A stretch of DNA of 64,000 nt from Nitrospinota bacterium (GTDB taxonomy: Bacteria; Nitrospinota_A; UBA7883; JACRLM01), in NCBI GenBank assembly GCA_016235255.1, contig JACRLM010000066.1:4179-68178 (forward strand), written 5' to 3'. Under the pieces are notes generated by a model, which was given only the letters and a program-made list of their open reading frames with translations, did no database searches and was not told where the DNA came from. A program made the position numbers and the translations under genes. Shown here one piece after another: positions 14,006 through 64,000 of this stretch (within the stretch, counting starts at the first letter, position 1; the number at the start of each line of letters is the position of its first letter).

Positions 14006-14013
14006 CGGGTTTG

Positions 14014-21906: not shown

Positions 21907-23565
21907 ATGACGAACATAAACCGCGGTTACGGATTCTCCACGATCGTTAATTTCTACAGGAGGGAGGTGGAGTCCCCCGGAACCAGGATACTGATAATGG
22001 CCACGGTGTCCGGCATTTCCGGAGCCGTGCTGCTGGGCCTTATCAACATGGCGGCGCAGATGGCCTCTGAGCGGGAGATACACGCCCGGCTGTTCTCGTT
22101 GTTCATCGCCGCGCTCCTTCTTTACATATACACCAGAAGATTCGCCCTCGAAGAGGCCACCAGCGGGGCCGAAGTGGCGGTGAACAAGGTTCGGGTGCGG
22201 ATCACGGACAAACTGCGCCGGGCGGACCTGCAATTCATCGAGGGAGTCGGGGACACCAAGATATACACCCGGATAAGCCAGGAGACCGCGCTGTTGTCCC
22301 AGGCCGCGTTCATCATCGTGGACGCGCTGCAGTCGGTGATACTGCTTGTGGCGTGCTTTGCCTACATATTCATTATATCCGGCCTTGCGTTCATGATGAC
22401 AGTCGCGGCGATCGCCGTGGGCATTTCCCTCTATTTCGTGAACACCAAGGAAATAAACAGGGAGATGCGGCAGGCCGCCGCCAAGGAAGAGGAGTTTTTC
22501 GAGCTGCTCAGCCACGTGCTGGCGGGATTTAAGGAGATAAAGCTAAACCACAGGCGCAACGAGGAGATTTACCGGGTCATAAAGGGAGTGGCGGACGAGA
22601 CCCAGCGGCTCAAGCTGAACACCAACAGCAAGTTTCTTGTGGACTACATGTTCGGCCAGGTGTTCTTTTACGCATTGCTGGGCGTAATGGTCTTCGTGCT
22701 GCCGGCGATGGTGGAGATAGACGCAAAGGACGTGGCCAAGCTTGCCTCCACGCTTCTTTTCATCATCGGGCCGCTGACGGCGGCGGTGTCGTCCGTGCAG
22801 ATATTCTCCAAGACCTCCATTTCCATAGAAAACCTGTACTCGCTGGAGGAAATGATAGACAACTCCACGAAGCTCGCCGCTTCCGCCCCCCCGCCCCCCG
22901 TCACCCCGGCCTTTGAGCTGATAACCCTGGAGAACCTGGTGTTCAATTATATGGACCAGACCGGCGCGAGCGCGTTCCAGGTGGGGCCTGTGGACATGGA
23001 GATAAAGCGGGGAGAGACCATATTTCTGGTGGGCGGCAACGGATCGGGCAAGTCCACGCTGTTAAAGCTTATGACGGGGCTTTACAATCCGCGGTCGGGC
23101 AAAATAAAGATAGACGGGAAATTTGTGGAGGCCTCCGGAATGCAGGGATACCGGGAGTATTTCACCGCGATCTTCGGCGATTTCCACCTTTTCGACAGGC
23201 TTTACGGGCTTGAGGGGGTGGCCGACGGGAGGGTGGACGAGCTTTTGCGCCTGGTGATGCTGGAAAAGAAGACCGAATTCAGGGACGGCAAGTTTTCCAA
23301 CCTGGAGCTTTCCACCGGGCAGCGCAAAAGGCTGGCCCTGGTGGTGTCGTTCCTGGAGGACAAACCCATATATGTGTTTGACGAGTGGGCGGCCGACCAG
23401 GATCCGGAGTTCCGCCGGTTTTTCTACGACACCATCCTGTCCGGGCTCAAGGAGCGGGGGAAGACCGTGATAGCCGTCTCGCACGACGACCGTTATTTCA
23501 AGCACGCCGACAGGACGTTGCGCATGGACTACGGCCGGGTTGTGGAAGCCACCGATAACAGATAA
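21907..23565 (+). CDS. Cyclic-peptide export ABC transporter (fused permease-ATPase, SyrD/PvdE/YojI type)
   Basis: 552 aa. The N-terminal six-helix permease part has the family-typical start (ILIMATVSGISGAVLLGLINMAAQ). Walker A is GGNGSGKST, the ABC signature is LSTGQRKRLALV, and Walker B is IYVFDEWAADQD. Confidence 0.85.
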   Translation: MTNINRGYGFSTIVNFYRREVESPGTRILIMATVSGISGAVLLGLINMAAQMASEREIHARLFSLFIAALLLYIYTRRFALEEATSGAEVAVNKVRVRITDKLRRADLQFIEGVGDTKIYTRISQETALLSQAAFIIVDALQSVILLVACFAYIFIISGLAFMMTVAAIAVGISLYFVNTKEINREMRQAAAKEEEFFELLSHVLAGFKEIKLNHRRNEEIYRVIKGVADETQRLKLNTNSKFLVDYMFGQVFFYALLGVMVFVLPAMVEIDAKDVAKLASTLLFIIGPLTAAVSSVQIFSKTSISIENLYSLEEMIDNSTKLAASAPPPPVTPAFELITLENLVFNYMDQTGASAFQVGPVDMEIKRGETIFLVGGNGSGKSTLLKLMTGLYNPRSGKIKIDGKFVEASGMQGYREYFTAIFGDFHLFDRLYGLEGVADGRVDELLRLVMLEKKTEFRDGKFSNLELSTGQRKRLALVVSFLEDKPIYVFDEWAADQDPEFRRFFYDTILSGLKERGKTVIAVSHDDRYFKHADRTLRMDYGRVVEATDNR

Positions 23566-23571
23566 CATACT

Positions 23572-24450
23572 TTGACCAAAGCGGACGGAAAAATGGAAGA
23601 AAAGAAAACGCTAAGACAAAGGATCAGGGAACGGCTGTACCGGAACCTGCCTTACCTGATAATACTTTCCATAACCCTGATATTCCTGTTCATATTATTC
23701 TTCCCCAGGATTGTGATAACCATCCACGCCGGCCGGGCCGGGGTGCTGTACAAAAGGCTGACGGTGGGAACCGTGACCGACTATGTGTACCCTGAAGGGC
23801 TGTACCTTATCGCCCCATGGAACAGGATGTACATCTACAACGTGCGCAAGCAGGTGGTGACGAAGGACTACAGTTTCATGACGGCCAAGGGGCTGCCGGT
23901 GACGCTCACCATATCCATACGCTATCAGCCGGACTACGATTTCCTCGGGTACCTGCACAAATCGCTGGGTCCGGACTATCTGGACGTGGTGGTGTGGCCC
24001 AGCGTGGAGGCGACGATAAGGCAGGTCATCAGCAAGTTGAACGTGGAGGAGGTCTATTCCACGCAGGAATCGGTGCTAAGCAAGCTTGTCAACGAGGCGC
24101 TGGACGACGCCGCCAGCGGATTTGTGATGATCGACGATGTTCTTATAAGGAAGGTGAGCCTTCCCGCCAACATCCAGACGGCGGTGGAAAAGAAGCTCAC
24201 CAACGAACAGGAGTTCCAGGCGTATGAGTTCATCCTGAAGAAAGAGGCGCAGGAGGCGGAGCGCAAGCGCATAGAGGCGCGAGGCATAAGAGACTTCCAG
24301 GCGACCGTGAAGGAGACGCTGAACGCCGACGTGCTCAAGCTTCGCGGAGTGATGGCCACCGAGCAGCTGGCGACATCCCAGAACGCCAAGACGATAGTGA
24401 TCGGCGGAGGCAAGGACGGGCTGCCTGTGATATTGAATGGCAAAGAATGA
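23572..24450 (+). CDS. SPFH/band-7 (prohibitin-like) membrane protein
   Basis: N-terminal TM helix (LIILSITLIFLFILFF), then an SPFH core (IHAGRAGVLYKRL...GLYLIAPW...VTKDYSFMTAKGLPVTLTISIRYQP) and a coiled-coil tail (EQEFQAYEFILKKEAQEAERKRIEARG). The listed start 23572 is TTG; the ATG at 23593 is an alternative. Confidence 0.85.
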   Translation: MTKADGKMEEKKTLRQRIRERLYRNLPYLIILSITLIFLFILFFPRIVITIHAGRAGVLYKRLTVGTVTDYVYPEGLYLIAPWNRMYIYNVRKQVVTKDYSFMTAKGLPVTLTISIRYQPDYDFLGYLHKSLGPDYLDVVVWPSVEATIRQVISKLNVEEVYSTQESVLSKLVNEALDDAASGFVMIDDVLIRKVSLPANIQTAVEKKLTNEQEFQAYEFILKKEAQEAERKRIEARGIRDFQATVKETLNADVLKLRGVMATEQLATSQNAKTIVIGGGKDGLPVILNGKE

Positions 24451-25649
24451 CATTTCCACCTGAAGGCCGTTTGCGGCCCTGGCCCCTTTTGGCCGCCGGA
24501 TATACGGGAAGAACGGTTTACGCATGCCTGGTTTTGGCGGCATGTTTTTTCATTATGTCGTGCCAGGACGGGCAGTCAACCGGGGCTGTCCGCAACGCCC
24601 GCGTGATGGACAGCGGGGAGGCGGTGATCGGCATTGTCTATCCCCGGGAGAAGACCGGCGAATCCTTCGCCAACGGCGCGCTTCTGGCGGTGGATGAGAT
24701 TAACGCACGCGGCGGGATAATGGGAAAGAAGCTGGCGCTGGAGATAATGGACGACCGGGGGGACCCCAGGGTCAGCGTGGAGATGGCGAAAAAAATAGCG
24801 AAAGACATGGACATCATCGCCGTCATCGGCCATCTTTCATCCGACGCGGCCATAGCCTCATCGCTGGCATATCATATCAATGACATGCTGTTCATGGCGC
24901 CCCAGGCCGCATCGCCATACCTTACGATGCACAAGTTCGAGACCGTTTTCCGCACCATTTCCAGCGACAGGCTGGTGGCGGCTAAGGCCCTTGAGTACAT
25001 GAAGAATAAAGGACTGACCAAGTTGATCATCGCCAACGAACAGTCCAGGTACGGAGTTGACCTTTCGCACTTGATGATCGCGCATTCAAAGGAGTTCGGG
25101 ATTACCGTGGTATCGCAGAAAAATTACTTTAACGCCGACACGGATTTCCGGCGCGGGCTGATCGGGATGCAGGACATGGACTTTGACGCGGTTTTCATAG
25201 CCGGCGGCTTTCCGGCGGGGGCGATCCTGATCCGGCAGATAAGGGAGATGGGCTTTAATCAGCCGATTTTCACCGGCGGCGCCCTGAACTCCCCGAAACT
25301 TATGGAGATCGCCGGAAAAGCCGCCGAAGGGGTGGTGTCCGCCAGCCATTTTTCCATGAGCGACCCCATTCCGGAGATGGCGGCCTTCGTCGCCAAATAC
25401 AGGGCGCGCTTTAAGGAGGAGCCGGAGCAGAATTCCGCGCGCAGTTACGAGGCGGTGTCGTTGCTGGCGCAGTCGCTTGAAAAATCGAAAAGTTTCAATC
25501 CCGTGGTAGTGGCCTCCACCTTCAAGGTGTACAAGCAGTGGCGCGGGCTCACGGGGCTGTATGATTTCACCCGTTACGGAGACGTAACAGGGCACAAGCT
25601 GTATCTGGAAACGGTGAAGAACGGCAAGTTTGAGCTTTTGATCGACTGA
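24447..25649 (+). CDS. Periplasmic substrate-binding protein, type I (Leu/Ile/Val-binding, LivK-like)
   Basis: ATGA overlap with the SPFH gene. It has a signal/lipobox-like LVLAACFFIMSC, then IGIVYP...GALLAVDEINARGGIMGKKLALEIMDDRGDP...AVIGHLSSD, typical of ABC branched-chain amino-acid binding proteins. No cognate permease or ATPase genes are adjacent. Confidence 0.8.
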   Translation: MTFPPEGRLRPWPLLAAGYTGRTVYACLVLAACFFIMSCQDGQSTGAVRNARVMDSGEAVIGIVYPREKTGESFANGALLAVDEINARGGIMGKKLALEIMDDRGDPRVSVEMAKKIAKDMDIIAVIGHLSSDAAIASSLAYHINDMLFMAPQAASPYLTMHKFETVFRTISSDRLVAAKALEYMKNKGLTKLIIANEQSRYGVDLSHLMIAHSKEFGITVVSQKNYFNADTDFRRGLIGMQDMDFDAVFIAGGFPAGAILIRQIREMGFNQPIFTGGALNSPKLMEIAGKAAEGVVSASHFSMSDPIPEMAAFVAKYRARFKEEPEQNSARSYEAVSLLAQSLEKSKSFNPVVVASTFKVYKQWRGLTGLYDFTRYGDVTGHKLYLETVKNGKFELLID

Positions 25650-25664
25650 TTATACGGCGGGGAG

Positions 25665-25856
25665 ATGGCGCCCCGCAAAGGCGCAGGGAGGAAAGACATG
25701 GAAATAGTTGCTTTGATGGTCGCGTTGAGCGGGATTGTGGGCCTTTTGGGCATCAACAGGAAGTTCGGCTTCTGGGGTTATTTTTTCGCCTCCCTGTTGC
25801 TGACCCCGGCTATCGGGCTTTTGCTGGTGCTCGCGTCGTCGCCGCCGCGCAAGTGA
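25665..25856 (+). CDS. Small two-helix membrane protein (hypothetical)
   Basis: MEIVALMVALSGIVGLLGI and FWGYFFASLLLTPAIGLLLVLA are hydrophobic helices. The likely start is the internal ATG at 25698. I recognise no family, so coding status is uncertain. Confidence 0.35.
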   Translation: MAPRKGAGRKDMEIVALMVALSGIVGLLGINRKFGFWGYFFASLLLTPAIGLLLVLASSPPRK

Positions 25857-25866
25857 AAGCCGGGGC

Positions 25867-26502
25867 TTAAAAGATTTGGGCCTGTTTGACGATGACAGGC
25901 TCGCCATGCCTGTCAAAAGCGGCGTGGCATATGTGACCTTCCCCCACGCTGACGGGGGTGATATACCATAGTTTGCCGTGGATCCGCGCCGCGCCGTCCA
26001 TAAGCCGCACTTCCTCCAAAGGTATCGAAAGCCCTCTGCCGTCGGCCTTGATGGCGCTCTCTTTCATCGTCCATATCCGGAAAAACCGGGCCAGGGGGTC
26101 TTGCGCCTTTTTGACTGATTCCATTTCATCGGCGGAGAAGTATCTTTCAAAACCGGAAATGTCCACATCCCGGACAATTTCCACGTCCACTCCCAGCCGG
26201 CAAGTTGAACTTATCGCGCACACGGCGATCTGGCCGGAATGTGAAAGGTTGAAATCAAAGTTCCCGCTGATAAACGGCCGGCCGAACTCGTTTGTTTTTA
26301 CCAGCCGTATCTCTTCCGGATCGCGGCCAACAAGTTCAAGGGCCTTGGCGATCAGAAGTTTTCCCGCCAGCGCAAGATGCCGGTCCTGCCATTTTCTGAA
26401 ACGTTCCACATCCGCTCTCATTTCAGCCGAGAGTTTGTTGACAAGCCGCTCCCATTCCCCCCCTTCAATCCGCCGCTGGACACGGCTGACCAGAATCTCC
26501 AT
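25867..26502 (-). CDS. Sfp-type 4'-phosphopantetheinyl transferase
   Basis: FNLSHSGQIAVCAIS, LGVDVEIV, FFRIWTMKESAIKADGRGL (the W/KEA motif). It is transcribed divergently from the megasynthase genes. Confidence 0.85.
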   Translation of the reverse strand: MEILVSRVQRRIEGGEWERLVNKLSAEMRADVERFRKWQDRHLALAGKLLIAKALELVGRDPEEIRLVKTNEFGRPFISGNFDFNLSHSGQIAVCAISSTCRLGVDVEIVRDVDISGFERYFSADEMESVKKAQDPLARFFRIWTMKESAIKADGRGLSIPLEEVRLMDGAARIHGKLWYITPVSVGEGHICHAAFDRHGEPVIVKQAQIF

Positions 26503-26659
26503 CCGTTGTTTCCCTGATGATACACAGCTTACCGGGCCCGAAATCCCAGTTTATACGATATGGATGCTGACAGGAGCATAAATTAATAGTAACAAAACGA
26601 AATTTCTTTAGTAATTTCAGCTTGTTGTCAGATTTTAGACCCGTTATAACAAAGTTCTG

Positions 26660-26688: not shown

Positions 26689-26698
26689 ATTAAGCTGA

Positions 26699-29600
26699 TT
26701 GGTGATCGTGGGGGGACGCATACTTTACCTTGATGGGGGAAACGTGTCCTCAAACGCGGTTAAAAAGATGATTGTCCAAGCAGTTGAAATGGAAAAAGCC
26801 TTGAAATTTTCCTCGATCACCGAGGTTTTATCATGGCGGGCCTCCCGCAATGGCGATAAAACAGCCTTCACGTTCCTTCATGAAGGCAAAACTCCGGAGC
26901 GTTCCATTACATTCCGGCAGTTGGACGAGCAAGCATGCGCATTGGCCACAACACTTAAAGACCTGGGCGCCGAGGGGGAAAGGGCGTTGCTCATATATCC
27001 CGCCGGGATCGAGTTTGTGGTGGCGTTCATGGGATGCCTGTATGCGGGCGTCATCGCCGTCCCCCTCCCGCCGCCGGACTCGGCAAGATTGAAAAGGAGC
27101 CTTCCAAGGCTCAACCTTGTGGCGGAGGATTCCGGGGCCAAATTCGTCCTTTGCCTGGGAAACATGGCGCAAACGCTGGAATCTTCCCTGGTGGACTACA
27201 AATGGCTTAAAAGCATGCGCCTGATCGCCACTGACGGCCTTGGGATGGCGGGGCAAACCGGATTTAAGGGCGCCGCCGCGCCGGAAGGCATAGCTTATCT
27301 GCAATACACCTCCGGCTCCACCTCCGATCCCAAAGGGGTGATAGTGCGGCATGAAAACATCATGGCCAACTCCATGTGCGTACAACGCATGTGGAGCTAT
27401 TCGGAGGAGAGCGTATCGCTTGTGTGGATGCCCAATTTTCACGACTACGGGCTTGTGGACGGGATTATCCAGCCCATATTCTCCGGCGCTTCGTCATATT
27501 TAATGTCCCCGATGGCATTCCTGAAAAATCCGCTGCGGTGGGTGGAGGCGGTGTCGCGGTTCGGGGTGACAAACAGCGGAGGTCCGAACTTCGCCTTCGA
27601 ATACTGCGCCGCCAAAATCACACCGGAGAAAAAAGCGGGGCTGGACCTTTCACGATGGAAGGTGGCCCATTGCGGCGCCGAACCGATCCGCAAGGTTACT
27701 GTGGACAGTTTTACGAAAGAATTTTCCATATGCGGATTCGACAGCCGATCGTTCTACGCCGGATACGGCTTGGCCGAGGCCACGCTGATGGTCACCACCA
27801 AACGCCGGGGGAGCGAACCGCCGTTTTTTACCGCCTCCGCCGCAAGCCTGGAAAAAGACCTGGCCGTTCCGGCGGATGGAGGGCAAAAGGCCCGTCATAT
27901 CGCCGGATGCGGCGTCCCGGCGGGGGATATGGACGTGGTCATCGCCGATCCAGACAGCCATGCGCGGCTTGAGCCTGGAAAGATCGGCGAGGTGTGGGTG
28001 GCTGGCCAGCCGGTGTCGCCCGGCTACTGGGGGAAAGAAAAGGAGAGCGGCGATACTTTCCGCGCTCAACTTGCCGGGGAATCGGCCGCAAAATACCTTC
28101 GCACCGGCGACCTTGGATTCATGCTCGACGGCGAGTTGTATATCACAGGACGCCGAAAGGACCTGGTGATCATAGGCGGGGTGAACCATTATCCGCAGGA
28201 CATCGAACTGACGGTGGAAAGCTGCCACCCGAACCTCCGCAAGAACGGGTCGGCCGCGTTTTCCGTGGACGTGGAGGGGGAGGAGCGGCTTTGCGTTGTG
28301 GCGGAGGTGGACAGCGCCGCCAAGGAATTTGGCGCGATACTCCGGCAAATCATCTCGGCGGTCTCGGAAAACCACGAGTTGGAAGTCTTTGCGGCGGTCC
28401 TTATCAGGAAGGGGACGTTATTGAAGACCACCAGCGGCAAGGTCCAGCGCGGCGCCTGCCGTAAAGTGTTCCTCGAAGGGGGGCTGGAGGAGGCCGCCGT
28501 AATGCGGAAGAAAGCCATCGGGCACGCGTCCCACCCGGCAGGCGGTGGAACTGGCGCGGCTGGAAAAATTATGGCTAAAGAGCAGGCGGTAAATTCAATA
28601 TCCGTACTGCTCGCCCAAAGGCTTGGCCTGCGGTTGGAGGAAATCGTCCCCGCCGAAACGTTCTCAAGTTTCGGCCTGTCGTCGCGGGAGGCGGTACGTC
28701 TTGCCGGCGAACTTGAAGAGGCCTTCGGAATGGAGCTTGCGCCCACCATTCTCTGGAAATATCCGACGGTGGACTCTCTGGCGGGGCATTTATGCGGGGA
28801 AGCAGACCTGGCGCAGCCTTCATCTTTGGAGCGGCGCAACAAAAATTCAAGCAGCGAGCCCATCGCCATTGTGGGGATTGGCCTTAAGTTCCCGGGGGCG
28901 GACGATCCGGACTCGTTCTGGAGGATGCTTTTGGAGGGGAAGGACGCAATATCGGAAGTTCCCGCCGGAAGGTGGCCCATTGAAGATTATTACGATCCGG
29001 CCCCGGCCACACCCGGGAAGATGAACACCCGATGGGGAGGGTTCATCGACGGGGTGGACATGTTCGACGCTGAATTTTTCGGGATCACCCCCCGCGAGGC
29101 GGAAGCAATGGATCCGCAGCAGCGGCTTGTTCTGGAAACGGCATGGCGGGCGCTGGAGAACGCCGGGATTCCACCGGCGGGGCTTGCCGGATCGGCTGGC
29201 GGAGTGTTCATTGGCGTAAGCGCGGACGATTATTCCAGGCTCCAGTTCAATCAGTCGGCGTCGTCGAGCGCATACGCCGGCACAGGCTCATCGCTAAGCC
29301 TTACGGCCAACCGCCTGTCGTATTATCTGGACCTTAAAGGCCCTTCTCTGGCGGTGGACACGGCTTGCTCGTCATCCCTTATGGCCGTGCATCTTGCGGT
29401 GGGCGCCCTGCGGCGCGGCGAGTGCGATCTGGCGCTGGCCGGAGGGGTGAGCCTGACGCTCACACCGCACGCCACGGTGGCGTTGTCGCAGGCGAAAATG
29501 CTCTCTCCCACGGGGCGATGCAGGACTTTCGGCGCGGATGCGGACGGATACGCGCGCGGCGAAGGATGCGGCGTCGTGGTCATGAAAAGTCTTTCTGATG

Positions 29601-39615: not shown

Positions 39616-39780
39616 GCGTAAAAGAGCTTTTGGAAAAACTCGGCGGGCTGGACGTGCGAGTGCGCGCGGACGGCGGCAGGCTTAAGATAAGCGCGCCGGA
39701 AGGGACGCTCACGGAAATGCTGCGCGGGGAGATCGCCGGACGCAAGGGGGAGATAATCGCCTTTCTGGCGGAAGCGGCGG
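39612..39780 (+). other. TubC-N-type beta-hairpin docking domain (junction 1)
   Basis: The first ~55 aa precede the C domain and follow the pattern LLxxLxxxGVxLxxEGxxLRxxAPxGxLTxxL...K.EI. The upstream PKS ends in the acidic tail EEMEL. Confidence 0.6.
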
Positions 39781-48714: not shown

Positions 48715-48880
48715 AATCAGCCGAAGATATAATCCGGGAACTGGATGGGCTGGGGGTAAAGCTCCGGGTGGAAGGCGAAGCCCTGCGCTATAAAGGCCCC
48801 AAAGGCGCAATCACCGGGCGGATGCGGGAGATCATCGGCGGGATGAAGGCCGAAATCATGGCGGCCGCCGCCCGCATGGC
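48711..48880 (+). other. TubC-N-type beta-hairpin docking domain (junction 2)
   Basis: The N-terminal ~55 aa are alignable by eye with 39612..39780. The upstream PKS ends in ELEEGEL. Confidence 0.6.
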
Positions 48881-53471: not shown

Positions 53472-53483
53472 GCGGCGGGAACA

Positions 53484-56400: not shown

Positions 56401-59400
56401 TGTACGATGTGATGGAGCCGCCGCTTGGGCTTGCGCTGCTGGCCACAAGGCTGAAAAACGAGTTCGGCCCCAAAGTGGAGGTGAAGATAGCCAAGGCCCG
56501 CGCCGATTTCGACAGTTTTGAAGAATTGCGCGCGCTGATGGACGACTTCCGGCCGGACCTGACCGGGGTGCGCTCATTGACCTATTACAGGAGCTTTTTC
56601 CACAAGACGGTGTTCCTTGTCCGTCAATGGGGATATGAAGGCGCCATCATCGCCGGCGGCCCCCATGCGACCAGCGCAACGGCGGACACATTGCGAAATC
56701 CCGGCGTGGCCTTCGCCGCCCTGGGGGAAGGGGAGGAGACGCTGGCGGAGCTTGTGCGTGAAACGATCAATAACAAAGGGCGGCTTCCCGGCAGGGACGT
56801 ATTGGGCCGCGTGGCAGGCGCCGCCATGGCGCGTGATGCGCGGAACGGCGCTGAATATCCTCGAGCCGCGCTTTTTGAAAAGCTGGAAAGGGACTCAGCC
56901 GCGCTCTCCGCCGAAGACATAAACGAGGCGAAAAGCGACGGCCTTGCGTATGTGATCTTTACCTCCGGCTCCACTGGGGAGCCCAAGGGGGTGATGGTGG
57001 AGCACAGGCAACTATGCAACCTGGTCACATGGATCGGCAGTGACATGTATTCAACGCTTCCCAAGCCTGTCAACGAAGCCATGCTTCCGTCGCTTGTGTT
57101 CGACGTGTCGGCCCAGCAGATTTTCGGAGCGCTCTCCACCGGGAACACTCTGCATGTAATAGAGGACGACGTGCGGCTCGACCCTCAAATGTTGCTCGAT
57201 TATCTTCGCGAGAACGAAATCCATGTCGTCAACTTCACTCCGACGCTGTTGCGGCGCGCTCTATCGTCCGCCGGATCGCGGAATCCGGGCTGGGCGCTAA
57301 GGCACGTGATCGTGGGGGCGGAGCCTTTGTGGATGGAGGACGTGGAATCGTTTTACTCCACGCCGGCCAACCGGGGGATCGTCATGCGCAACATGTACGG
57401 CCCAACCGAATGCTGCGTGGACGCCACCAGTTTCGTATTCGGCTTTTCAGCGCCGTTAGAGTGGAATAGCGTGCCCATAGGCAGGCCCATAGGTAACGCC
57501 CGGGCGCTGATTCTCGACGGCGCCGGGCTGCCGGTCCCCGCCGGGGTGGAAGGGGAGCTTTATGTGTCCGGCGCGGGGGTGGCCAGGGGATATGTTAAAG
57601 ATGACGGCGGCGGAAGGTTCATGGCCGATCCGTTCGCGCCGGGCTTGCGCATGTACCGTACCGGCGACATGGCGCGATGGCTGCCGGGCGGGAACATAGA
57701 ATTTCTGGGCCGGATGGACAACCAGGTGAAGGTTCGCGGCCACAGGATAGAACTGGGCGAGATAGAGAACAGGCTGCGATCCCATCCAAGGGTGTCCGGG
57801 GCGGCGGCGATCTTGCGCAAGACGGACGAGGGCGAAAGCGAGCTTGTGGCGTATGTGGCCTCCGGCGACGGGCTGGACGCCGAAGGGCTCCGGGAATATA
57901 TGGGCGGCCACCTGCCCGATTACATGATCCCATCCCATATAGCGCTGGTGGACAAAATCCCGGTGACACCGGGGGGGAAAGTGGACCTGCGCGCGTTGGA
58001 TTCCACAGCGGCGCAAGCGGCCCCCACGAATGGCGAGGATAGCGCCGCCCCCCGGTCGGAGATGGAAAAGACGGTGGCGGCCATATTCGCCAATACCCTC
58101 GGCCAGCCTTCCATGGGGATACATGACAATTATTTTTCGATGGGGGGCGATTCGATTAAGGCCATTCAGATACTGTCGCGGCTGCGGCAGAAAAACCTGA
58201 ACCTCAAGCTTGCCGACCTTTTTTCGAATCCCACCATAGCCGGAGTGGCGCCTTATGTGGTGAGGCTGGACCGCACCGCGCAACAAGGGCTCATCACCGG
58301 GCCGGTCCCGCTCACCCCGATCCAGCGCGCCTTCTTTGAAAGGGACGCCGCGGCGCCTGACCATTTCAACCATTCCATAGCGCTGCGGGCAAAAAAGCCG
58401 CTGGATCCGGCGATCCTGGAAAAAGCCCTTTCGGCCGTGTGGGAGTGGCATGACGCGCTGCGCATGAGGTACAGGCGCGATGGGGAAGAGGTCGTCCAGG
58501 AATGCGCTGGGCTTGAGAACAGGCTGGATTTCTCATTCAAAGACCTGTCCACGTCCCCGGACGGCGACACGGAGGCCATGCGCGCGATGGGCGAGGCGCA
58601 ACAGCGGTTCGACCTGGCCACGGGGCCGCTGGCCAGGTTCATCCTGTTCCGGCTTGCCGGCGGCGAGACGCTTTTCATCACCGTCCACCACCTTATCATT
58701 GACATGGTCTCGTGGAGATTGTTGCTTGAGGACATTTCCACGGCCTACGAGCAAGCGGCGCGGGGCGGCCAGGCGCGCCTGCCGGCCAAGACCGATTCGT
58801 TCCGACAATGGGGCGAGGCCCTTTTGGAATTCGCAAAAAGCCCAAAACTTCTTGCCGAACTTGAAACATGGGCACAGATCGAAAACAGCGAATACGCCGA
58901 GCCCGTTCCGGACTTCCCGGGAGGCGGCAACACCTTCGCCAGCGAACATATTGAAAGTTTCACCCTGCAGGCGCAGATGGGGGAGAAACTGACCGGGGAG
59001 GCCAACAGGGCATATAACACCACGCCCGACGAGCTTGTGCTGGCAGCCCTTGGCCAGGCTTTGGAAAAATGGGGGATGAAAGGCGCCACGTTGATCGATC
59101 TGGAGGGGCACGGCAGGGAGGAGATCTCGCCGGGGCTGGACATAAGCCGTACCGTCGGCTGGTTCACCTCCACGCACCCTTTCACGCTGGGCCTTGACGG
59201 CGCTCCGATGGACGCGCGCATAAAGAGAGTGAAGGAAGCCAGGCGGAAGGTTCCACACAAGGGAATAGGCCACGGGATATTGGGCAGGATCACACCCCGC
59301 GAATTGCTGAGGGGAGCCAGATTCACCCAAAAGCCGGGAATAAGTTTCAATTACCTGGGCTTTATTGGCGGATCGGCCATGGGGCCGCTGTTCGAGCCGT

Positions 59401-59684
59401 CGCCGCTTGCGTCCGGCCGGGATGTAAGCCCGCTCAATCAAAGGGTGGCGGGTCTGGACATAAGCTGCGCGGCGTGGACGGGGGGCTTCACTTTGTCCAT
59501 CCGCTACAGCGGCGAGCAATACCGAAGTGATAATATCAAGCGCCTGCTCGGCCAGATAGAAGAAGGAATCGCCGCGGCCCTTTCCCTCTGCCTTAAAATG
59601 GAGGCCACGGAGCCCACCCCGTCGGACATGACGTACAAGGGGCTTAGCCTTCAGGAGTTCGAGGAGATATTCGCCGATGATTAG
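53484..59684 (+). CDS. NRPS module with an interrupted adenylation domain: C(DCL-type)-A[N-part]-radical SAM-B12-binding-A[C-part]-PCP-E
   Basis: C: IYPLTPTQEGMLFH, HHHILMDGWS. A1: LTYSQLNQRANRIAG. A2: LKAGAAYLPLDP (55095..55130). Insert: STRGCPYLCAYCH, FVFIDDIF, then VLLLDLSQ...PPLGLALLATRL...IIAGGPHATS...GEGEETLAELV. A3: LAYVIFTSGSTGEPKG (56943..56990). A4-A10: FDVSAQQ, NMYGPTECCVDAT, YRTGDMARW, GRMDNQVKVRGHRIELGEIE, GGKVD. PCP: MGGDSIKAI (Ser 58152). E: VHHLIIDMVSW. The reading frame is uninterrupted throughout. Confidence 0.9.
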   Translation: MAIEKSNIKNIYPLTPTQEGMLFHALMETSPEAYFNQIIYTLRGDLDADAFEKSWNEIIKRHDTLRTLFTYRNTDRPLQVVLRERPLRASIHDLIGLPQAQKELAAEEIRRADLAKPFDLEQDILMRLYVIRLEDNLWKVIWSHHHILMDGWSVGNVMKELMAVYLAMKKGTRPALAPPPPYAEYIKWLEKLDKSASGDYWKRYLAGYEKPVTFPRLKRPSGKREIKDFRFSFDETLTSQVERFTRERGVTLGAVTQGAWGALMARYNGVDDVVSASVVSGRPPELEGVESYVGLFINAIPVRSRIGASTSFAGLTESLMRDAADGAAHHYYPLGKIQTAHPLGRNLLDHVTALENYPVQERLNDPALYEDLGFAPVSFEWTERTNYDYDFMAIPGKRLDFHVTYDSNMFDAGQMEAMAGHLENIVRSAAADPLAPLNKMDILAPAERERILFEFGGPASINPPDGTVLNLIEENARKTPDAAALVCAGRRLTYSQLNQRANRIAGRLIKAYGVRPGDIVGVMMEKSERAVVAILAILKAGAAYLPLDPEHPEKRTAGILAQAGAKMLITEQRVAEGMEFDGILDFIMPQTGIVTTPPRSSIQELDSLPYADRSVINYEKYHNFIGQSVAKRAMAIQSTRGCPYLCAYCHKVWPKKHKRRSAENLFGEVKKLHDCGVRRFVFIDDIFNMDRANSARFFEMVIRARLDIQIFFSNGLRGDTLTPDYIDLMVEAGTKSMALALETASPRLQKLMKKNLRLERFKENLDYIAARHPQVILELFTMHGFPTETEEEAMMTLDFIRGIKWIHFPYVFILRIFPDTDMARLAMDNGVSAEAIKASATLGYHELPSILPFPASFSKRYQMTFLNEYFLSRERLISVLPRQMALLSEDELVQKYNSYLPKDIRSFGDFLELAGLSMEDLRGAAFAEDGAKQSAGLNSRLAAAFPSPNPEKGALRVLLLDLSQNFTKDKTLLYDVMEPPLGLALLATRLKNEFGPKVEVKIAKARADFDSFEELRALMDDFRPDLTGVRSLTYYRSFFHKTVFLVRQWGYEGAIIAGGPHATSATADTLRNPGVAFAALGEGEETLAELVRETINNKGRLPGRDVLGRVAGAAMARDARNGAEYPRAALFEKLERDSAALSAEDINEAKSDGLAYVIFTSGSTGEPKGVMVEHRQLCNLVTWIGSDMYSTLPKPVNEAMLPSLVFDVSAQQIFGALSTGNTLHVIEDDVRLDPQMLLDYLRENEIHVVNFTPTLLRRALSSAGSRNPGWALRHVIVGAEPLWMEDVESFYSTPANRGIVMRNMYGPTECCVDATSFVFGFSAPLEWNSVPIGRPIGNARALILDGAGLPVPAGVEGELYVSGAGVARGYVKDDGGGRFMADPFAPGLRMYRTGDMARWLPGGNIEFLGRMDNQVKVRGHRIELGEIENRLRSHPRVSGAAAILRKTDEGESELVAYVASGDGLDAEGLREYMGGHLPDYMIPSHIALVDKIPVTPGGKVDLRALDSTAAQAAPTNGEDSAAPRSEMEKTVAAIFANTLGQPSMGIHDNYFSMGGDSIKAIQILSRLRQKNLNLKLADLFSNPTIAGVAPYVVRLDRTAQQGLITGPVPLTPIQRAFFERDAAAPDHFNHSIALRAKKPLDPAILEKALSAVWEWHDALRMRYRRDGEEVVQECAGLENRLDFSFKDLSTSPDGDTEAMRAMGEAQQRFDLATGPLARFILFRLAGGETLFITVHHLIIDMVSWRLLLEDISTAYEQAARGGQARLPAKTDSFRQWGEALLEFAKSPKLLAELETWAQIENSEYAEPVPDFPGGGNTFASEHIESFTLQAQMGEKLTGEANRAYNTTPDELVLAALGQALEKWGMKGATLIDLEGHGREEISPGLDISRTVGWFTSTHPFTLGLDGAPMDARIKRVKEARRKVPHKGIGHGILGRITPRELLRGARFTQKPGISFNYLGFIGGSAMGPLFEPSPLASGRDVSPLNQRVAGLDISCAAWTGGFTLSIRYSGEQYRSDNIKRLLGQIEEGIAAALSLCLKMEATEPTPSDMTYKGLSLQEFEEIFADD
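55230..56905 (+). other. Roughly 550-aa insert in the A domain: radical SAM core (about 55300..56330) followed by a cobalamin-binding-type domain (about 56340..56800)
   Basis: The CxxxCxxC Cys codons are at 55407, 55419 and 55428. The upstream LPYADRSVINYEKY and downstream RRFVFIDDIFNMDR and LALETASPRLQKLMKK match class B radical SAM strand patterns. The B12-domain pattern is PPLGLAxLAxxL...(F)RPDLTG(V)...GGPHAT...GEGEET. Boundaries are approximate to about 60 nt. Confidence 0.8.
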
Positions 59685-62600
59685 CAAGGAAAACCTCAAG
59701 GACATGTATCCGCTCTCCCCCATGCAGGAGGGGATGCTTTATCACGCCGTGGCGGACAGGGATTCGCGCGCGTATTTCGAGCAGATATCGTTCCGGATAA
59801 GCGGAGAGCTGGACATCGGAAAATTCATGGAGGCGTGGACGGAGATATTCCGCCGCCACGATATCCTGCGCACGGCGTTCCTGCTGGAAAAGGCCAGCAG
59901 GCCGCTCCAGATAGTGCTCAAGGAGCGCAAACCCGGCTTTAGCGTGGATGACATAAGCGCCGAGCCCGAGGAGGAAAAGGAAAGGACCGTCATCCGGTTC
60001 CGGGAAGAAGATAAACAGCGCGGATTTGATCTGGCGCGCGATCCGCTGATGAGGTTTCGCGTAATAGTCCTGGGCGGGGGCCGGTTCGAGGTCATATGGA
60101 GCTTAAGCCACATCGTCATGGACGGATGGGGCATATCGCTGGCGCATACGGAATTTTTTGAGATATACACCGCTTTGAAGGAGGGACGCGCCCATACACT
60201 TCCTCCGGCGCCTCCTTATTCGCGCTTTATCCAGTGGCTGGAGGAGCGGGACAAAAGAGCATCGTTGGACTATTGGGAGAAATACCTGGCGGACTATCAG
60301 ACGGCCGTATCAATCCCGAAACTTCCGGGCGCGCCCAACGGGAAAGAGTTTGCGGTGGCGATACACTCTTCCACCCTCGGAGCGGAGCGGGTGCGCAAGG
60401 TCGAGCAGCTTGCCGCGGCGCATGCCGTCACGCCGAACATGGTTTTCCAGGCGGCGTTATCGGTGGCGCTTTGCATGTACAACGGGGTGGACGACGCCGT
60501 TTTCGGATCAGTGGTGTCCGGCAGGCCGCCGGAGCTTCCCGGCGCGGAAAAGACCCTCGGACTTTTCATAAACACCATCCCGGTGCGGGGGAGTGTGGAC
60601 TGGGACAGCGGGTTGGACGTGCTTTTAAAGCGCCTGATGAAAAGCGGCGTGGAGAGCGCCCCGCATCATCACAGTTTCCTGGGGGAGGTGATCGGCCGCT
60701 CCACCCCCGGGCGGGACCTGATCAGTGCCCTGCTTATTTTTGAGAACTATCCGTTGGACGCCTTGACCATGCTCCCGTCCACCGGATTTGATATCATCCG
60801 GACCAAACGCTTTGAAATGACCACGTCGGATTTTAACGTTGTGGTAATTCCGGGCGGTGACATGCGGGTGGATTATCACTACAACCAGAACGTCCACAGC
60901 GCGGCCCAGGTGGAGCGGACGGCGTCGCATCTGGTGAAAATCCTCGATTTTGCGATAGAAGGGGCTTCTCGGCCTCTTTCCATGCTCAAGGTCATGGACG
61001 ATGAGGAGATGAACGCCGTGACTATCGGATTCCAGGGGAAGTCCGCCGCGATCCCGGAAGGCAAGACAGTGGACGCCATGTTCACGGACTCGGCTTTAAA
61101 GCACGGGGACAGGATCGCGGCGATGGATGGCGCTGGCGAGGTGACATATCAAAGGCTCGACCGCATGGCCAACGGCGTGGCGCGGGCGCTCATTGAAAAA
61201 GCTTCGGTGGGCAAGGGGGACGTGGTGGCGGCGGTGGTGCACAGGTCGCGCTGGCTTGCCGCTTCGTTCATGGGCATATTGAAGGCCGGCGGGTTGTACC
61301 TTCCTTGCGATCCTGATCTGCCCGCCGAAAGGATACGATTCATGATGCGCGATTCAGCCTGCAAGGCTGTGATCGTGGATGACGCAGGCGTCGCCGCGCA
61401 ACTGGCCGATGGCGGCGTTCCGGTCATAATGACGGACGACATAAAAGAAAGCCCGGCCCAATCCGCCGCCGCCGCCGATCCGGAAGAGCCGGCCTATCTT
61501 ATATACACATCCGGTTCCACTGGTGTCCCCAAAGGTGCGCTCATCAGCCACCGGGCCGCCATCAACCTGAGCATGTGGCACAACCGGTTCTACAAAGTGG
61601 ACGAAAACAGCAGGGGCACGTTGCACGCCTCACCTTCGTTCGACGCCTCCGTATGGGAGACGTTGCCGTACCTGTTCGCAGGCGCCAGCCTTTGCGCCGT
61701 GGAAGGGGAGACGCGCACCGATATGGCTAAACTGGCCTCATTTTATCAGGACAAACGTATCACGCACAGCTTTCTGCCCCCAGCCCTGCTCACGCAGTTT
61801 CTGGAGGAGAACGGCGGCTCCCTCGCGGGCAAAATAACGATAGTCACCGGAGGCGAGACGCTAAAGCGCGCGGGCGACGGTTCCGTCCTGGTGGCGAACA
61901 ATTATGGGCCGACCGAATGCGCCGTGGCGGCCACCGCCGTTTGCCTGGACGAGCCGCGCCTTCGCGAATGCATCCCAATCGGCCGCCCGATAGACAACGT
62001 GAAAGTTTATATTCTGGACAGCCGCATGCGACCCGTTCCCATCGGCGCCATCGGCGAGATTTATATAGGCGGCGCCGGAGTGGGGAATGGATACGTAAAC
62101 CGGCCCGAGCTCACGGCGGCGGCGTTTGCGCCAGGCCCTTTTGAAAACGGCGCGAAACTTTACAGGACGGGGGACATGGCCCGGTGGCGCGACGACGGGC
62201 TTATTGATTTTACCGGCAGGCGGGACGGCCAGGTGAAAATACGCGGTAACAGGGTTGAGACAGGCGAGATTGAAAAGCTTCTTGAGGGGCACGCGACGGT
62301 CACCTCGGCGGCGGTGGTGGCCAGGGACGATGGCGCGGGGTCGAAGGAACTGGCGGCGTTCTATGTTTCCGGCAAAGAGGAGGATGTGGCGGACCTGCGG
62401 GCGCATCTTGCGTCCAGAGTCCCGGAATACATGATTCCTTCCATGTTCATCAGGATGGAAAAGCTGCCGCTGGCATCCAGTGGAAAAGTGGACCGGAGCG
62501 CCCTGGAGGCCGCCGCCATTGCCGCCGCGCGTCCTCAAAAACAGGGAGGGGCCCCCAGAAATCCCGCGGAAACACGGATGCTGGAAATCTGGGCGGGGGT

Positions 62601-62856
62601 TATGGGTGTGAAGGGGGCTGGAATATTTGACAATTTCTTCGACCTGGGTGGCCACTCCATAAAAGCGGCGCAACTGGCCTCGCGCATTCGCAAGGAGTTC
62701 GGCGTGGAGATGCCCCCCAATTCCATATTCGAAAATCCGACGGTGGAGAGTATCTGCCAGGCCATGGAAACGGTGAAACAGGCGGCTCCCGGCAATGGTG
62801 GACAGATGATTGGCAAAGCCCCGCGCGGCCGCAAGCCGGCCGTGATGGACAGTTGA
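59677..62856 (+). CDS. NRPS module: C(DCL-type)-A-PCP
   Basis: 8-nt overlap with the upstream gene. MYPLSPMQEGMLYH, SHIVMDGWG. A: LKAGGLYLPCDP, YLIYTSGSTGVPKGA, NNYGPTECAVAA, YRTGDMARW. The hand-extracted code DAWFVGNVAK is closest to the Leu code DAWFLGNVVK. PCP: LGGHSIKAA (Ser 62656). Confidence 0.93.
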   Translation: MISKENLKDMYPLSPMQEGMLYHAVADRDSRAYFEQISFRISGELDIGKFMEAWTEIFRRHDILRTAFLLEKASRPLQIVLKERKPGFSVDDISAEPEEEKERTVIRFREEDKQRGFDLARDPLMRFRVIVLGGGRFEVIWSLSHIVMDGWGISLAHTEFFEIYTALKEGRAHTLPPAPPYSRFIQWLEERDKRASLDYWEKYLADYQTAVSIPKLPGAPNGKEFAVAIHSSTLGAERVRKVEQLAAAHAVTPNMVFQAALSVALCMYNGVDDAVFGSVVSGRPPELPGAEKTLGLFINTIPVRGSVDWDSGLDVLLKRLMKSGVESAPHHHSFLGEVIGRSTPGRDLISALLIFENYPLDALTMLPSTGFDIIRTKRFEMTTSDFNVVVIPGGDMRVDYHYNQNVHSAAQVERTASHLVKILDFAIEGASRPLSMLKVMDDEEMNAVTIGFQGKSAAIPEGKTVDAMFTDSALKHGDRIAAMDGAGEVTYQRLDRMANGVARALIEKASVGKGDVVAAVVHRSRWLAASFMGILKAGGLYLPCDPDLPAERIRFMMRDSACKAVIVDDAGVAAQLADGGVPVIMTDDIKESPAQSAAAADPEEPAYLIYTSGSTGVPKGALISHRAAINLSMWHNRFYKVDENSRGTLHASPSFDASVWETLPYLFAGASLCAVEGETRTDMAKLASFYQDKRITHSFLPPALLTQFLEENGGSLAGKITIVTGGETLKRAGDGSVLVANNYGPTECAVAATAVCLDEPRLRECIPIGRPIDNVKVYILDSRMRPVPIGAIGEIYIGGAGVGNGYVNRPELTAAAFAPGPFENGAKLYRTGDMARWRDDGLIDFTGRRDGQVKIRGNRVETGEIEKLLEGHATVTSAAVVARDDGAGSKELAAFYVSGKEEDVADLRAHLASRVPEYMIPSMFIRMEKLPLASSGKVDRSALEAAAIAAARPQKQGGAPRNPAETRMLEIWAGVMGVKGAGIFDNFFDLGGHSIKAAQLASRIRKEFGVEMPPNSIFENPTVESICQAMETVKQAAPGNGGQMIGKAPRGRKPAVMDS

Positions 62857-62900
62857 CCGGCGGCGGTGAAAGTTATCAAAAAAAACAATCGAAGCACAGG

Positions 62901-64000
62901 ATGACGATGAGCGAAGAGACGGTTGAAACATTCGTGTTTCCCATGTCCTATTCCCAAAGGAGGCTGTGGTTCCTCGAACAGATGGAGCCGGGCTCGGCGG
63001 CCTACCATATTCCGGCCGCCCTTTTAATGGAAGGAAAGCTGGACACAGCAGCGTTGGAAAAGAGTCTCAAGGCGATCGTGGAGCGCCATGAACCTTTGCG
63101 CACCACTTTCAAAATGGTGGAAGGGGAACCGTGCCAGGTGATCGGCTCCAAAGCGGACGTTTCCATTTCAATCATGGACGCGGCGCAGTGGCCTGAGGGG
63201 GAGAGGATGGACATTATACGCCGCCTGGTCGCCGAAAAGTCCGCCCGTCCGTTCGACCTTGCCGCCGGGCCGCTTCTGCGGGTCACCCTGATAAAGGCAG
63301 GCGAAAACAAAAGTGTGCTGGCCCTGGTTATGCATCATATCATTTCCGACGGGTGGTCCATGGGGGTGTTGATAAAGGAGTTTTCGGAGAATTATTCCGC
63401 CTTCGTCTCCGGTCAGGAGCCGCAAACGCCGGAGCTTGCCATCCAGTACGCCGATTACTCCGAGTGGCAGCGTGGAATGCTTGAGGGGGATGCATGGGCC
63501 GGCATGCTCGAATACTGGAAAAACACGCTCCACGGCGCGCCGCCGTTTCTGGACTTGCCCGCGGACAGGCAACGCTCTCCACTCAAGACATACAACGGCG
63601 CCATGGAGAGGTTTAACATCGGAGCCGGGACTTTCAGCAAGCTCGACACCCTTTGCCGGGGGAATTCGGCCTCGCTATTCATGTGTTTGTTCGCGGCCTT
63701 TTCCGCTCTTGTGTCCAGGTACACGCAAAAGGAGGACATGGTCCTGGCCACACTTCTGGCCAACAGGAACAGGGAAGAGCTTGAGCCGATAATCGGTTTT
63801 TTCGTGAACACGCTTCCACTGCGGCTGGACATGTCCGGCGATCCATCTTTCCAGCAATTGCTGGAGAAGGCCCGCCGCGTGTGCATGGACGCGTTCGCCC
63901 ATCAGGACGCCCCGTTTGACAAGCTTGTCGAATCGCTCAATCCCGAGCGCAATCTTGGCCATACGCCCATAGTCAACGTGATGATGACACTGCAGAATAC
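62901..64000 (+). CDS. NRPS, N-terminal part only (LCL-type C domain); continues beyond the window
   Basis: Not in the supplied ORF list because no stop falls in the window. ATG at 62901 gives MTMSEETVETFVFPMSYSQRRLWFLEQMEPGSAAYHIPAALLMEGKLD, with MHHIISDGWS near 63330 and the frame open to 64000. Confidence 0.88.
   Translation, partial: MTMSEETVETFVFPMSYSQRRLWFLEQMEPGSAAYHIPAALLMEGKLDTAALEKSLKAIVERHEPLRTTFKMVEGEPCQVIGSKADVSISIMDAAQWPEGERMDIIRRLVAEKSARPFDLAAGPLLRVTLIKAGENKSVLALVMHHIISDGWSMGVLIKEFSENYSAFVSGQEPQTPELAIQYADYSEWQRGMLEGDAWAGMLEYWKNTLHGAPPFLDLPADRQRSPLKTYNGAMERFNIGAGTFSKLDTLCRGNSASLFMCLFAAFSALVSRYTQKEDMVLATLLANRNREELEPIIGFFVNTLPLRLDMSGDPSFQQLLEKARRVCMDAFAHQDAPFDKLVESLNPERNLGHTPIVNVMMTLQN

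Follow-up and report, generated by a model that had tools for sequence, protein, structure and literature searches.

A stretch of 64,000 nucleotides from a Nitrospinota genome (contig JACRLM010000066.1, positions 4,179 to 68,178; the whole of it is called the window below, and position 1 is its first letter) carries a biosynthetic gene cluster (BGC) that begins with an exporter gene at 21907 and runs off the right edge. The cluster encodes a chain of polyketide synthase (PKS) and nonribosomal peptide synthetase (NRPS) modules, and two of its adenylation domains are interrupted by other putative enzymes. Exact look-ups identified the proteins of the window as NCBI MBI5815625-MBI5815652, from a metagenome-assembled genome (MAG) of Nitrospinae/Nitrospinota, where they lie on a 109,608-bp contig. 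Here we describe the assembly line with its borders, follow it past the edge of the window and discuss what it might make.

The assembly line and its borders

A preliminary description of this DNA saw in it a hybrid PKS/NRPS cluster primed by a fatty acyl-AMP ligase (FAAL), with a SyrD-type exporter and an Sfp-type phosphopantetheinyl transferase (PPTase), and the Pfam and NCBIfam matches are consistent with this. The gene coordinates that it gave are all reproduced by the list of open reading frames (ORFs). Its gene overlaps can be read directly from the sequence (ATGA at 35089, GTGA at 39612 and 48711, 8 nt at 43060 and 59677), and five junctions are translationally coupled. One of its two gaps, 12 nt at 53472-53483, stands as described; the other, 44 nt at 62857-62900, becomes 50 nt if gene H starts at 62907. 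Both 62901 and 62907 are candidate ATGs, and Prodigal-type calls on Logan contigs take the latter. Mapping with phmmer seeds returns the same module count for the window, three PKS modules (genes A, B and D) and six NRPS modules (genes A, C, E, F, G and the partial H). A thioesterase (TE) and a reductase had been reported missing from the window, and there is indeed no Pfam match to Thioesterase or NAD_binding_4 in it. What does not hold is the claim of strictly alternating chemistry: PKS and NRPS alternate only through modules 1-6, and modules 7-11 are all NRPS. Genes E, F, G and H already make four consecutive NRPS modules within the window.

It had also been supposed that the line continues beyond the right edge and that its terminating module could be found by extending the contig. 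Both suppositions proved right. An extension built from independent Logan assemblies of two sequencing runs adds the remainder of H and genes I, J and K, with a TE at the end of gene K, ~13 kb beyond the window. The 14,324-nt overlap of the Logan contigs with the window is 100% identical, and so is a stretch of 15,722 nt that the assemblies of the two runs share. The whole line consists of ten megasynthase genes (16,151 aa) with 3 PKS modules, 8 NRPS modules and 12 carrier domains. Pfam E-values for the ketosynthase (KS), acyltransferase (AT), ketoreductase (KR), condensation (C) and adenylation (A) domains run from 1e-70 to 1e-174 (for example, Condensation 2e-174 and ketoacyl-synt 2.5e-98), and chance is therefore excluded as the source of the domain matches. 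The cluster occupies 21.9-77.0 kb in window-equivalent coordinates (55 kb), 42 kb of which is inside the window (Table 1).

Table 1. Features of the cluster, with the codes of the A domains. Positions beyond 64000 are window-equivalent. ACP, acyl carrier protein; DH, dehydratase; T, thiolation (carrier) domain; E, epimerization domain; cMT, C-methyltransferase; SAM, S-adenosylmethionine.
Feature	Position	Strand	Description	Module: code
Left border	21729..21855	+	terminator-like hairpin 21729-21754 (11-bp stem, T-run) after a DUF697 gene; promoter-like TTGACC-17-TATCAT 21827-21855 before the exporter	
Cyclic-peptide export ABC transporter (SyrD/PvdE type)	21907..23565	+	552 aa; MBI5815639.1, NCBI name 'cyclic peptide export ABC transporter'	
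SPFH/Band-7 protein	23572..24450	+	PF01145 9e-25; 6 nt after the ABC transporter gene	
Periplasmic binding protein, Leu/Ile/Val-binding type	24447..25649	+	Peripla_BP_6 2.7e-45; NF011933 2.5e-39, below its cut-off	
Sfp-type 4'-phosphopantetheinyl transferase	25867..26502	-	211 aa; divergent from gene A; ACPS 1e-13, AASDHPPT_N 4e-11	
Gene A	26699..35092	+	2797 aa; loading unit, PKS module 1, NRPS module 2	2: DSALIAEVWK
Gene B	35089..39615	+	KS-AT(malonyl)-structural KR-KR-ACP	3 (PKS)
Gene C	39612..43067	+	TubC_N docking domain-C-A-T	4: DILQLGMIWK
Gene D	43060..48714	+	KS-AT(malonyl)-structural KR-KR interrupted by cMT-ACP	5 (PKS)
cMT stretch in gene D	46564..47766	+	~400 aa, residues 1169-1569	
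Gene E	48711..53471	+	TubC_N docking domain-C-A-T-E	6: DAKDDGAVDK
Gene F	53484..59684	+	DCL-type C-A(interrupted)-T-E	7: DVQNIGMVDK
Insert in the A domain of F	55218..56885	+	556 aa, between a2 and a3	
Gene G	59677..62856	+	DCL-type C-A-T	8: DAWFVGNVAK
Gene H, 5' part in window	62907..64000	+	LCL-type C domain	9
Gene H, whole	62907-67142	+	1411 aa; C-A(interrupted)-T	9: DLTKVGEVGK
Insert in the A domain of H	~65598-66629		344 aa, residues 898-1241, between a8 and a9; outside the window	
Gene I	67135-71871		C-A-T-C	10: DVQFIAHV-K
Gene J	71902-73602		566-aa stand-alone B12 radical SAM protein	
Gene K	73622-76957		half of a C domain (its C-terminal part) followed by A(Tyr)-T-TE (PF00975, GWSFG)	11: DASTIAAVCK

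Gene A is the most composite of these. Its protein carries, in this order, FAAL (residues 35-600), ACP (630-700), KS (722-1092), a remnant of a KS/AT linker (1097-1226), DH (1319-1586), a second ACP (~1620-1700), C (1713-2152), A (2187-2666) and T (2697-2759). NCBI starts the gene at a TTG at 26801 (2763 aa), and the Logan calls take the longest ORF.

The window opens with rpoB, rpoC and other housekeeping genes, and so the locus is chromosomal. The terminator-like and promoter-like sites of the left border sit where the housekeeping genes give way to the cluster genes; they are consensus matches only, and such sites are no more numerous in the region than in shuffled sequence. On the right, K is followed by genes for DUF481, hexapeptide-repeat and CcmH proteins, which are unrelated to the cluster and set its border at ~76,957. 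GC content is mostly 59-62% in the cluster and 56-63% in the flanks; this does not set the cluster apart, and there is no sign of recent horizontal transfer in the composition. A tRNA-Arg(TCT) gene lies on the minus strand at 20841-20917, ~1 kb left of the cluster border, and one Logan contig begins within it, at 20871. This tRNA gene could be an integration site of an island, for which GC gives no support.

We read the locus as a complete, chromosomal and orphan hybrid PKS/NRPS line of an uncultivated Nitrospinota bacterium, with a product that is predicted to be capped by a fatty acid, and we put the probability of this reading at about 0.8. The predicted cap follows the N-terminal region of gene A, which matches PF23024 (6e-15) and is directly followed by an ACP. 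The top NCBIfam match of this region is the PvdL-type model PRK05691 (495 bits, a partial match far below the cut-off); the next-best are FAAL models, all of them also below their cut-offs (for example, PRK05850 with 422 bits over positions 3-569 of 578). The exporter passes TIGR01194 with 346 bits against a cut-off of 286.2, over residues 29-549 of the protein and positions 24-551 of the 554 of the model, and it matches ABC_tran at 1e-25. The SPFH/Band-7 gene probably belongs to the operon of the exporter. The binding protein that comes next starts 36 aa later in the NCBI annotation (24555; 364 aa), and the Logan calls again take the longest ORF. The PPTase had been announced as present, and it is encoded on the minus strand. 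Both of its Pfam subdomains, ACPS and AASDHPPT_N, score above their cut-offs (51.7 vs 25; 43.6 vs 27), and its best NCBIfam matches are the HetI and AusB models, both sub-cut-off (HetI 74.5 vs 370). An ORF on the plus strand, 25958-26581, was considered as the PPTase and rejected: it has no family match and shadows the real gene on the minus strand.

Some of these matches might suggest that the pathway makes a pyoverdine-like siderophore and not a lipopeptide of another role. The PvdL-type model is the best match of the N-terminus, TIGR01194 spans PvdE as well as SyrD, and a Peripla_BP_6 gene is near the exporter. We consider this highly improbable. If the product were a siderophore of that kind, one would look for its ligands and for its uptake genes. 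There is no hydroxamate-, catecholate- or hydroxy-Asp-type code among the eight A domains, no gene for a TonB-dependent receptor, an N-hydroxylase or a Peripla_BP_2 protein in 58 kb of locus sequence, and the binding protein belongs to the type for branched-chain amino acids. A fatty-acid-capped hybrid line remains our preferred reading.

Catalytic residues, module order and substrate codes

The Cys-His-His triad is complete in all three KS domains (DTACSS, QTACST and NSACST, together with HGTGT and N-I-G-H). The ATs of modules 3 and 5 are of the malonyl type (GHSVG and HAFH). The DH has HxxxGxxxxP and DxxxH, and its nearest relatives are the DH domains of CurJ/CurK. Every one of the 12 carrier domains has its serine, and alignment to GrsA finds Asp235 and Lys517 in 8/8 A domains. 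The C domains bear (H/S)HxxxD, with the second, catalytic His of HHxxxDG in all of them, and the TE has the motif GWSFG. There are no internal stops in the 16,151 aa.

The C-type domains form three classes, which are cleanly split by pairwise bit score. LCL-like C domains are found in modules 2, 4, 6, 9 and 10 and at the end of I; DCL-like ones are found in genes F and G only. E domains stand at the C-termini of genes E and F (TPIQxWFF, HHLxxDxVSW and EGHGRE; in gene E, TPIQLWFF, HHLVVDAVSW and EGHGRE), and the C domains that follow these two E domains are precisely the two of the DCL class. Only C and E, the NRPS proteins preceded by PKS proteins, bear a TubC_N docking domain, and the proteins of genes B and D end in tails with an acidic EExEL motif. 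The C-termini of the E domains look like donor helices of the COM type. The collinearity is internally consistent, both in the match of DCL and E domains and in the placement of TubC_N.

The Stachelhaus codes of the A domains (Table 1) were obtained by alignment to GrsA, for which a frame check gives DAWTIAAICK. Judging by published codes, we predict that module 4 activates Gly, module 6 a Glu-like residue, module 8 Leu, module 9 Asn, module 10 Pro and module 11 Tyr.

Interrupted domains, the radical SAM gene and module 1

The preliminary description spoke of several non-canonical domain arrangements in a single pathway, and such arrangements are real. One is a KS-DH module without AT and KR, another an A domain with a radical SAM/B12 insert, and the third a cMT within the catalytic subdomain of a KR. 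The part of the line beyond the window holds a further interrupted A domain, that of gene H.

The insert of gene F lies between a2 (LKAGAAYLPLD) and a3 (LAYVIFTSGSTGEPKG). Both flanking motifs are intact, and a2-a3 is a known permissive site. The Radical_SAM domain comes first (CPYLCAYC; residues 637-800, nt 55392-55883; PF04055 1.6e-19, 71 bits vs 29.5) and the B12-binding domain second (979-1091, nt 56418-56756; PF02310 3e-12, 46.8 bits vs 32.1), which departs from the B12-first order of class B radical SAM methylases. An AlphaFold2 model of the insert (predicted local distance difference test score, pLDDT, 88.7; predicted template modelling score, pTM, 0.88) was compared with solved structures by Foldseek. 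The matches are the B12 radical SAM enzymes AprD4, MgmA, TsrM, CysS, TokK and OxsB, with a near-full-length alignment to Mmp10, the B12 radical SAM C-methyltransferase of an arginine in methyl-coenzyme M reductase; identity to any solved structure is <=20%. According to its published structure, Mmp10 has radical SAM at the N-terminus and cobalamin at the C-terminus, and no other methylase with the order of the F insert is known to us. The alignment to Mmp10 covers 521 columns of the 556-aa model at 11-12% identity, and the full-length rmsd is ~16 Å, meaning that the packing of the domains differs. Mmp10 also differs in that it modifies an arginine of a protein and has no association with NRPSs.

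The insert belongs to a large family. There are >2,600 homologs at E<=1e-5, the best with 55% identity, and >100 of those listed keep 45-55% identity. The CX3CX2C cysteines are invariant across an alignment of 47 sequences of the family, and the order of radical SAM before B12 is found in all stand-alone relatives too. Relatives embedded in A domains occur in NRPSs of Aminicenantes, Acidobacteriota and Deferrimicrobium; others stand alone, are ~550 aa long and lie directly beside NRPS genes. Could these A domains share a substrate that the insert recognizes? This idea was rejected, for the codes vary: gene F has DVQNIGMVDK, and two of the interrupted A domains of an Aminicenantes genome have DVMNFGIINK and DPWYLGTIN-. 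The differing codes suggest that the insert is a portable tailoring unit not bound to one substrate. By analogy with known enzymes, its most likely role is C-methylation, in cis, of the aminoacyl thioester on the carrier domain.

Several loci elsewhere carry relatives of the F insert. A 23-kb stretch of an Aminicenantes genome (CP070627.1, 5664049-5686895) has four A domains interrupted by radical SAM/B12, three in NRPS modules and one in a gene with only an A domain; among these interrupted genes there is also a stand-alone radical SAM gene with the opposite order, B12 first. In the JGI locus Ga0452210_001446 (8230-13334 of the locus), three tandem stand-alone copies of 572, 553 and 539 aa come directly after a 3949-aa NRPS/PKS protein, which itself has an embedded copy. 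In the cultured anaerobe [Clostridium] polysaccharolyticum (FOHN01000005.1, 10001-12981 of the locus), an NRPS-PKS cluster carries at its end a stand-alone homolog (48% identical) together with another B12 radical SAM gene, which makes this organism a possible model for experiments.

The insert of gene H is placed between a8 (GRADGQVKVQGYRIEPGEIE) and a9 (LPEFMIP). It has a zinc-ribbon-like pair of CxxC motifs and the PP-loop motif SGGKDS, and its full-length similarity to WbuX-type N-acetyl-sugar amidotransferases (87.6 bits vs a cut-off of 203) and to QueC is weak. Its 313 homologs, from Bacteroidota, Chloroflexota, Gemmatimonadales and Acidimicrobiales, mostly have the same embedded layout.

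The product of gene J matches TIGR04479, the PhpK family, with 665.4 bits (cut-off 600), over residues 3-500 of the protein and positions 2-504 of the 504 of the model. It is only a distant relative of the F insert (30% identity over 84 aa). The J/K cassette (71902-76957) recurs in Terasakiella (9890-15007 of its locus), where a homolog of K comes after a PhpK-like radical SAM gene. This homolog is 35% identical to K over 1100 aa, shares the half-C-A-T-TE layout and has the Tyr-type code DASTIAGVCK. A relative of J also lies beside NRPS genes in 'Candidatus Entotheonella serta', and a scan of GTDB species genomes (a set without the window's own genome) with the N-terminal part of J returned only relatives of 51-54% identity, in Terasakiella and Allorhizocola. 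If J were a P-methylase, as its family might suggest, one would expect phosphinate or phosphonate genes nearby. There are none (phosphoenolpyruvate mutase and the like) in the 58 kb, and in all three settings, this cluster, Terasakiella and Entotheonella, it is NRPS genes that lie nearby. P-methylation by J is therefore unlikely, and a C-methylation as by DscE is more likely.

PKS module 1 lacks both AT and KR and reads KS-linker-DH-ACP; its linker remnant is recognized by PF16197, PF22621 and PF22336. That the line is a trans-AT PKS was considered and rejected: two of the three PKS modules have an AT in cis, and the locus has no free AT gene. In gene D it is the position of the cMT that is unusual. 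The expected position of a cMT is upstream of the structural KR subdomain. Here it is within the catalytic subdomain, directly after the GGLGAIG/beta-2 region, as can be seen from a BLASTP comparison of the KR of B with D, in which residues 903-1172 of B correspond to 894-1168 of D and residues 1188-1380 of B to 1570-1762 of D. The cMT itself matches Methyltransf_12 (2e-16) over residues 1377-1479 of D.

With so many irregular parts, one may ask whether the inserts disrupt the modules that carry them and the pathway is in decay. Then modules F and H would be dead or skipped, module 1 would be a relic and the product would be shorter or would not be made at all. Module 1 does have a DH yet no AT or KR, several C domains have SHxxxD instead of HHxxxD (that of module 10 reads SHIISDAW, with no Gly after the Asp), and these are MAG genes read from sequence. 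We find decay quite unlikely nevertheless. The catalytic and carrier residues listed above are all intact, the second His is kept even in those C domains that have lost the first, and not one stop has entered the reading frames. Both inserts sit at sites that tolerate insertions, with their flanking motifs kept. Moreover, both insert families keep this embedded layout in several phyla, a sign of selection.

Proposed biosynthesis and relation to known systems

The following steps are read from domain families and laid over the domain identities and order, catalytic residues, borders and conservation of the insert families as observed. The Sfp-type PPTase would prime the carriers, and the FAAL would put a fatty acid on the first ACP. 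KS1 might then extend the chain on an ACP malonylated in trans, which is the weakest step of all, and the DH would yield a 2-enoyl chain if a reductase acts in trans. Module 2 (DSALIAEVWK) would add amino acid 1, and the KS-AT-KR of gene B would convert it to a gamma-amino-beta-hydroxy unit. Gene C would add Gly, from which the KS-AT-cMT-KR of gene D would make a 4-amino-3-hydroxy-2-methylbutanoyl unit. A D-Glu-like residue, by virtue of the E domain, would come from gene E. The residue added by gene F would be C-methylated in cis by the radical SAM/B12 insert and then epimerised to D. Gene G would add Leu and gene H Asn, where the PP-loop ATPase may activate the carboxamide or carbonyl oxygen with ATP, leading to an amidine, a nitrile or a thioamide. 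Pro (gene I) and Tyr would follow, with the terminal C domain of I joining the chain to Tyr on K. Gene J, which is encoded beside a Tyr module both here and in Terasakiella, probably methylates the Tyr residue or the finished peptide. The TE of K would release the product by hydrolysis or macrocyclisation, and the ABC transporter of the SyrD/PvdE type would export it. Besides module 1, the least certain points in this scheme are which reactions the radical SAM and PP-loop inserts catalyse, what J acts on and how the TE releases the product.

Several points weigh against our reading of the locus, or against parts of it. The cluster is known from its DNA sequence, and its product is a prediction from it. 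The Nitrospinota label is the submitter's. The 58 kb contain no gene for a trans-AT or a trans-KR; this, together with the missing AT and KR, makes any chemistry proposed for module 1 tentative. The codes of modules 2 and 7 could be given no substrate, and the other assignments of substrates depend on comparison with published codes. The F insert could carry out radical chemistry other than methylation, and its best match in the PDB is AprD4, a diol dehydratase. As for the H insert, its proposed chemistry draws on the weak similarity to WbuX and QueC.

How does all this compare with what is known? The F and H inserts occupy the same two sites as in known interrupted A domains, a2-a3 in F as in TioN and MarQ, and a8-a9 in H as in KtzH, TioS, PchF and McyA, with the flanking motifs intact; by this analogy the inserts should act on a carrier-bound substrate. 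The difference is in what is inserted. The inserts described for them belong to the class I SAM methyltransferases or are Ox, KR or MOx domains; here they are radical SAM plus B12 and a PP-loop protein. A 2020 categorisation of bacterial interrupted A domains is confined to inserted methyltransferases, and radical SAM, B12 and PP-loop domains go unmentioned in it (PMC8341866). A review from 2024 names M, Ox, KR and MOx as the kinds of insert found at a2-a3 and a8-a9, and the word 'radical' is absent from it (PMC11355689). In a literature search that was thin on subscription journals, and so is weak evidence, we found no report of an A domain interrupted by a radical SAM domain.

B12 radical SAM methylases are known to work with NRPSs as free-standing proteins. 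DscE C-methylates Val and Ala in discodermin, and its authors call this 'an unusual enzyme combination' of NRPS and radical SAM (PMC12858407). CysS, of cystobactamid biosynthesis, has been crystallised with pantetheinylated substrates (PDB 9n1b-d). With both the F insert shares CX3CX2C, a B12 domain and the association with NRPS; J is of the same general kind and, like them, stands alone. Unlike CysS and DscE, the F insert is fused inside an A domain and has the reversed order, radical SAM first.

Other parts of the line also have known counterparts. MycA reportedly has the layout acyl ligase-ACP-KS-ACP-aminotransferase-C-A-PCP (PCP, peptidyl carrier protein), with malonyl supplied in trans. 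Gene A likewise combines activation of a fatty acid, an ACP, a KS without AT, a second ACP and the first NRPS module on one protein. It differs in having a DH where MycA has the aminotransferase, in lacking a gene for a FenF-like malonyl transacylase and in lacking a KR to provide the substrate of the DH. Gene D matches, in its set of domains and in its place between NRPS modules, the KS-AT-cMT-KR-ACP type of BlmVIII and HMWP1. Its predicted product is a 4-amino-3-hydroxy-2-methyl acid as in that type, made from an upstream Gly and not Ala. The exporter resembles SyrD/PvdE exporters over its full length, as the match to TIGR01194 indicates. The insertion sites and the logic are familiar and the inserted enzymes appear to be new; by its domain families, the remainder is standard hybrid machinery. 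In other words, this is an orphan BGC of a well known kind with new domain variants.

If only the familiar features are considered, the cluster might be a diverged copy of a characterised lipopeptide pathway, for instance a cyanobacterial or myxobacterial FAAL-primed hybrid, and its product would belong to a known class of compounds. All types of domains are standard save the two inserts in A domains, the starter is like MycA of iturin and mycosubtilin and gene D is like BlmVIII, and TubC_N docking is typical of myxobacterial systems. The look-ups of relatives point away from this, in line with the preliminary description, and we regard a known compound class as unlikely. Among ~15 billion proteins, a set that has NCBI among its sources, none shares 90% identity with any cluster protein that was looked up, apart from alternative start calls of the same gene for A and the binding protein. 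For the three tailoring parts, identity to the best homologs is only 55-64%, and these come from uncharacterised metagenome sequences, unnamed or with generic names. In a scan of JGI metagenomes with the ACP-KS-DH-ACP part of the starter module, long matches reached at most 49% identity and no locus had the same layout. Two loci in that scan cover the whole query, and both have an AT or a different order of domains. Among protein representatives the same query is dominated by giant multi-KS PKSs, and the sole full-length match is the NCBI copy of gene A, which is uninformative on how rare the layout is. To our knowledge, there is no compound with the predicted order of units. In the literature on Nitrospinota we found only BGC surveys and no characterised natural product.

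An orphan line with its own tailoring is what we prefer, and one can go a step further. The product may be a new lipopeptide scaffold with two new on-line tailorings, radical B12 C-methylation of a carrier-bound amino acid by an insert of its own A domain, and the action of a PP-loop insert that would turn a carboxamide or carbonyl into an amidine, nitrile or thioamide with ATP. This is a tentative suggestion, in which we place distinctly less confidence than in the line itself. If it is correct, the family of the F insert would be a large and so far unrecognised class of bifunctional A domains, since it is widespread in NRPSs of Aminicenantes and Acidobacteriota.

Hybrid PKS/NRPS clusters are common in genomes from metagenomes, and the cluster as such is no surprise. 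Its value is that the whole line can be read from end to end, 11 modules up to the TE, on a contig that also has rpoB and rpoC and is assigned by its submitter to Nitrospinota, that no close relative turned up in the collections searched, and that one pathway contains two kinds of A-domain inserts that are missing from both overviews cited above. Thousands of members of the F insert family in uncultivated phyla would offer a target for studies of on-line radical C-methylation, which is so far represented by the free-standing CysS and DscE. Tractable entry points are the J/K cassette of Terasakiella (T. brassicae is cultured) and the relative of the insert in [Clostridium] polysaccharolyticum.

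Two other observations concern the housekeeping side of the window. A 638-aa ORF on the plus strand, 18834-20750, has no Pfam match and lies 3' of genes of the glycosyltransferase, GNAT and PIG-L types. A 377-aa ORF on the plus strand, 12248-13381, also without a family match, is probably spurious, judging by its overlap with the ORF 12734-13324 on the minus strand, which encodes imidazoleglycerol-phosphate dehydratase (9e-65).

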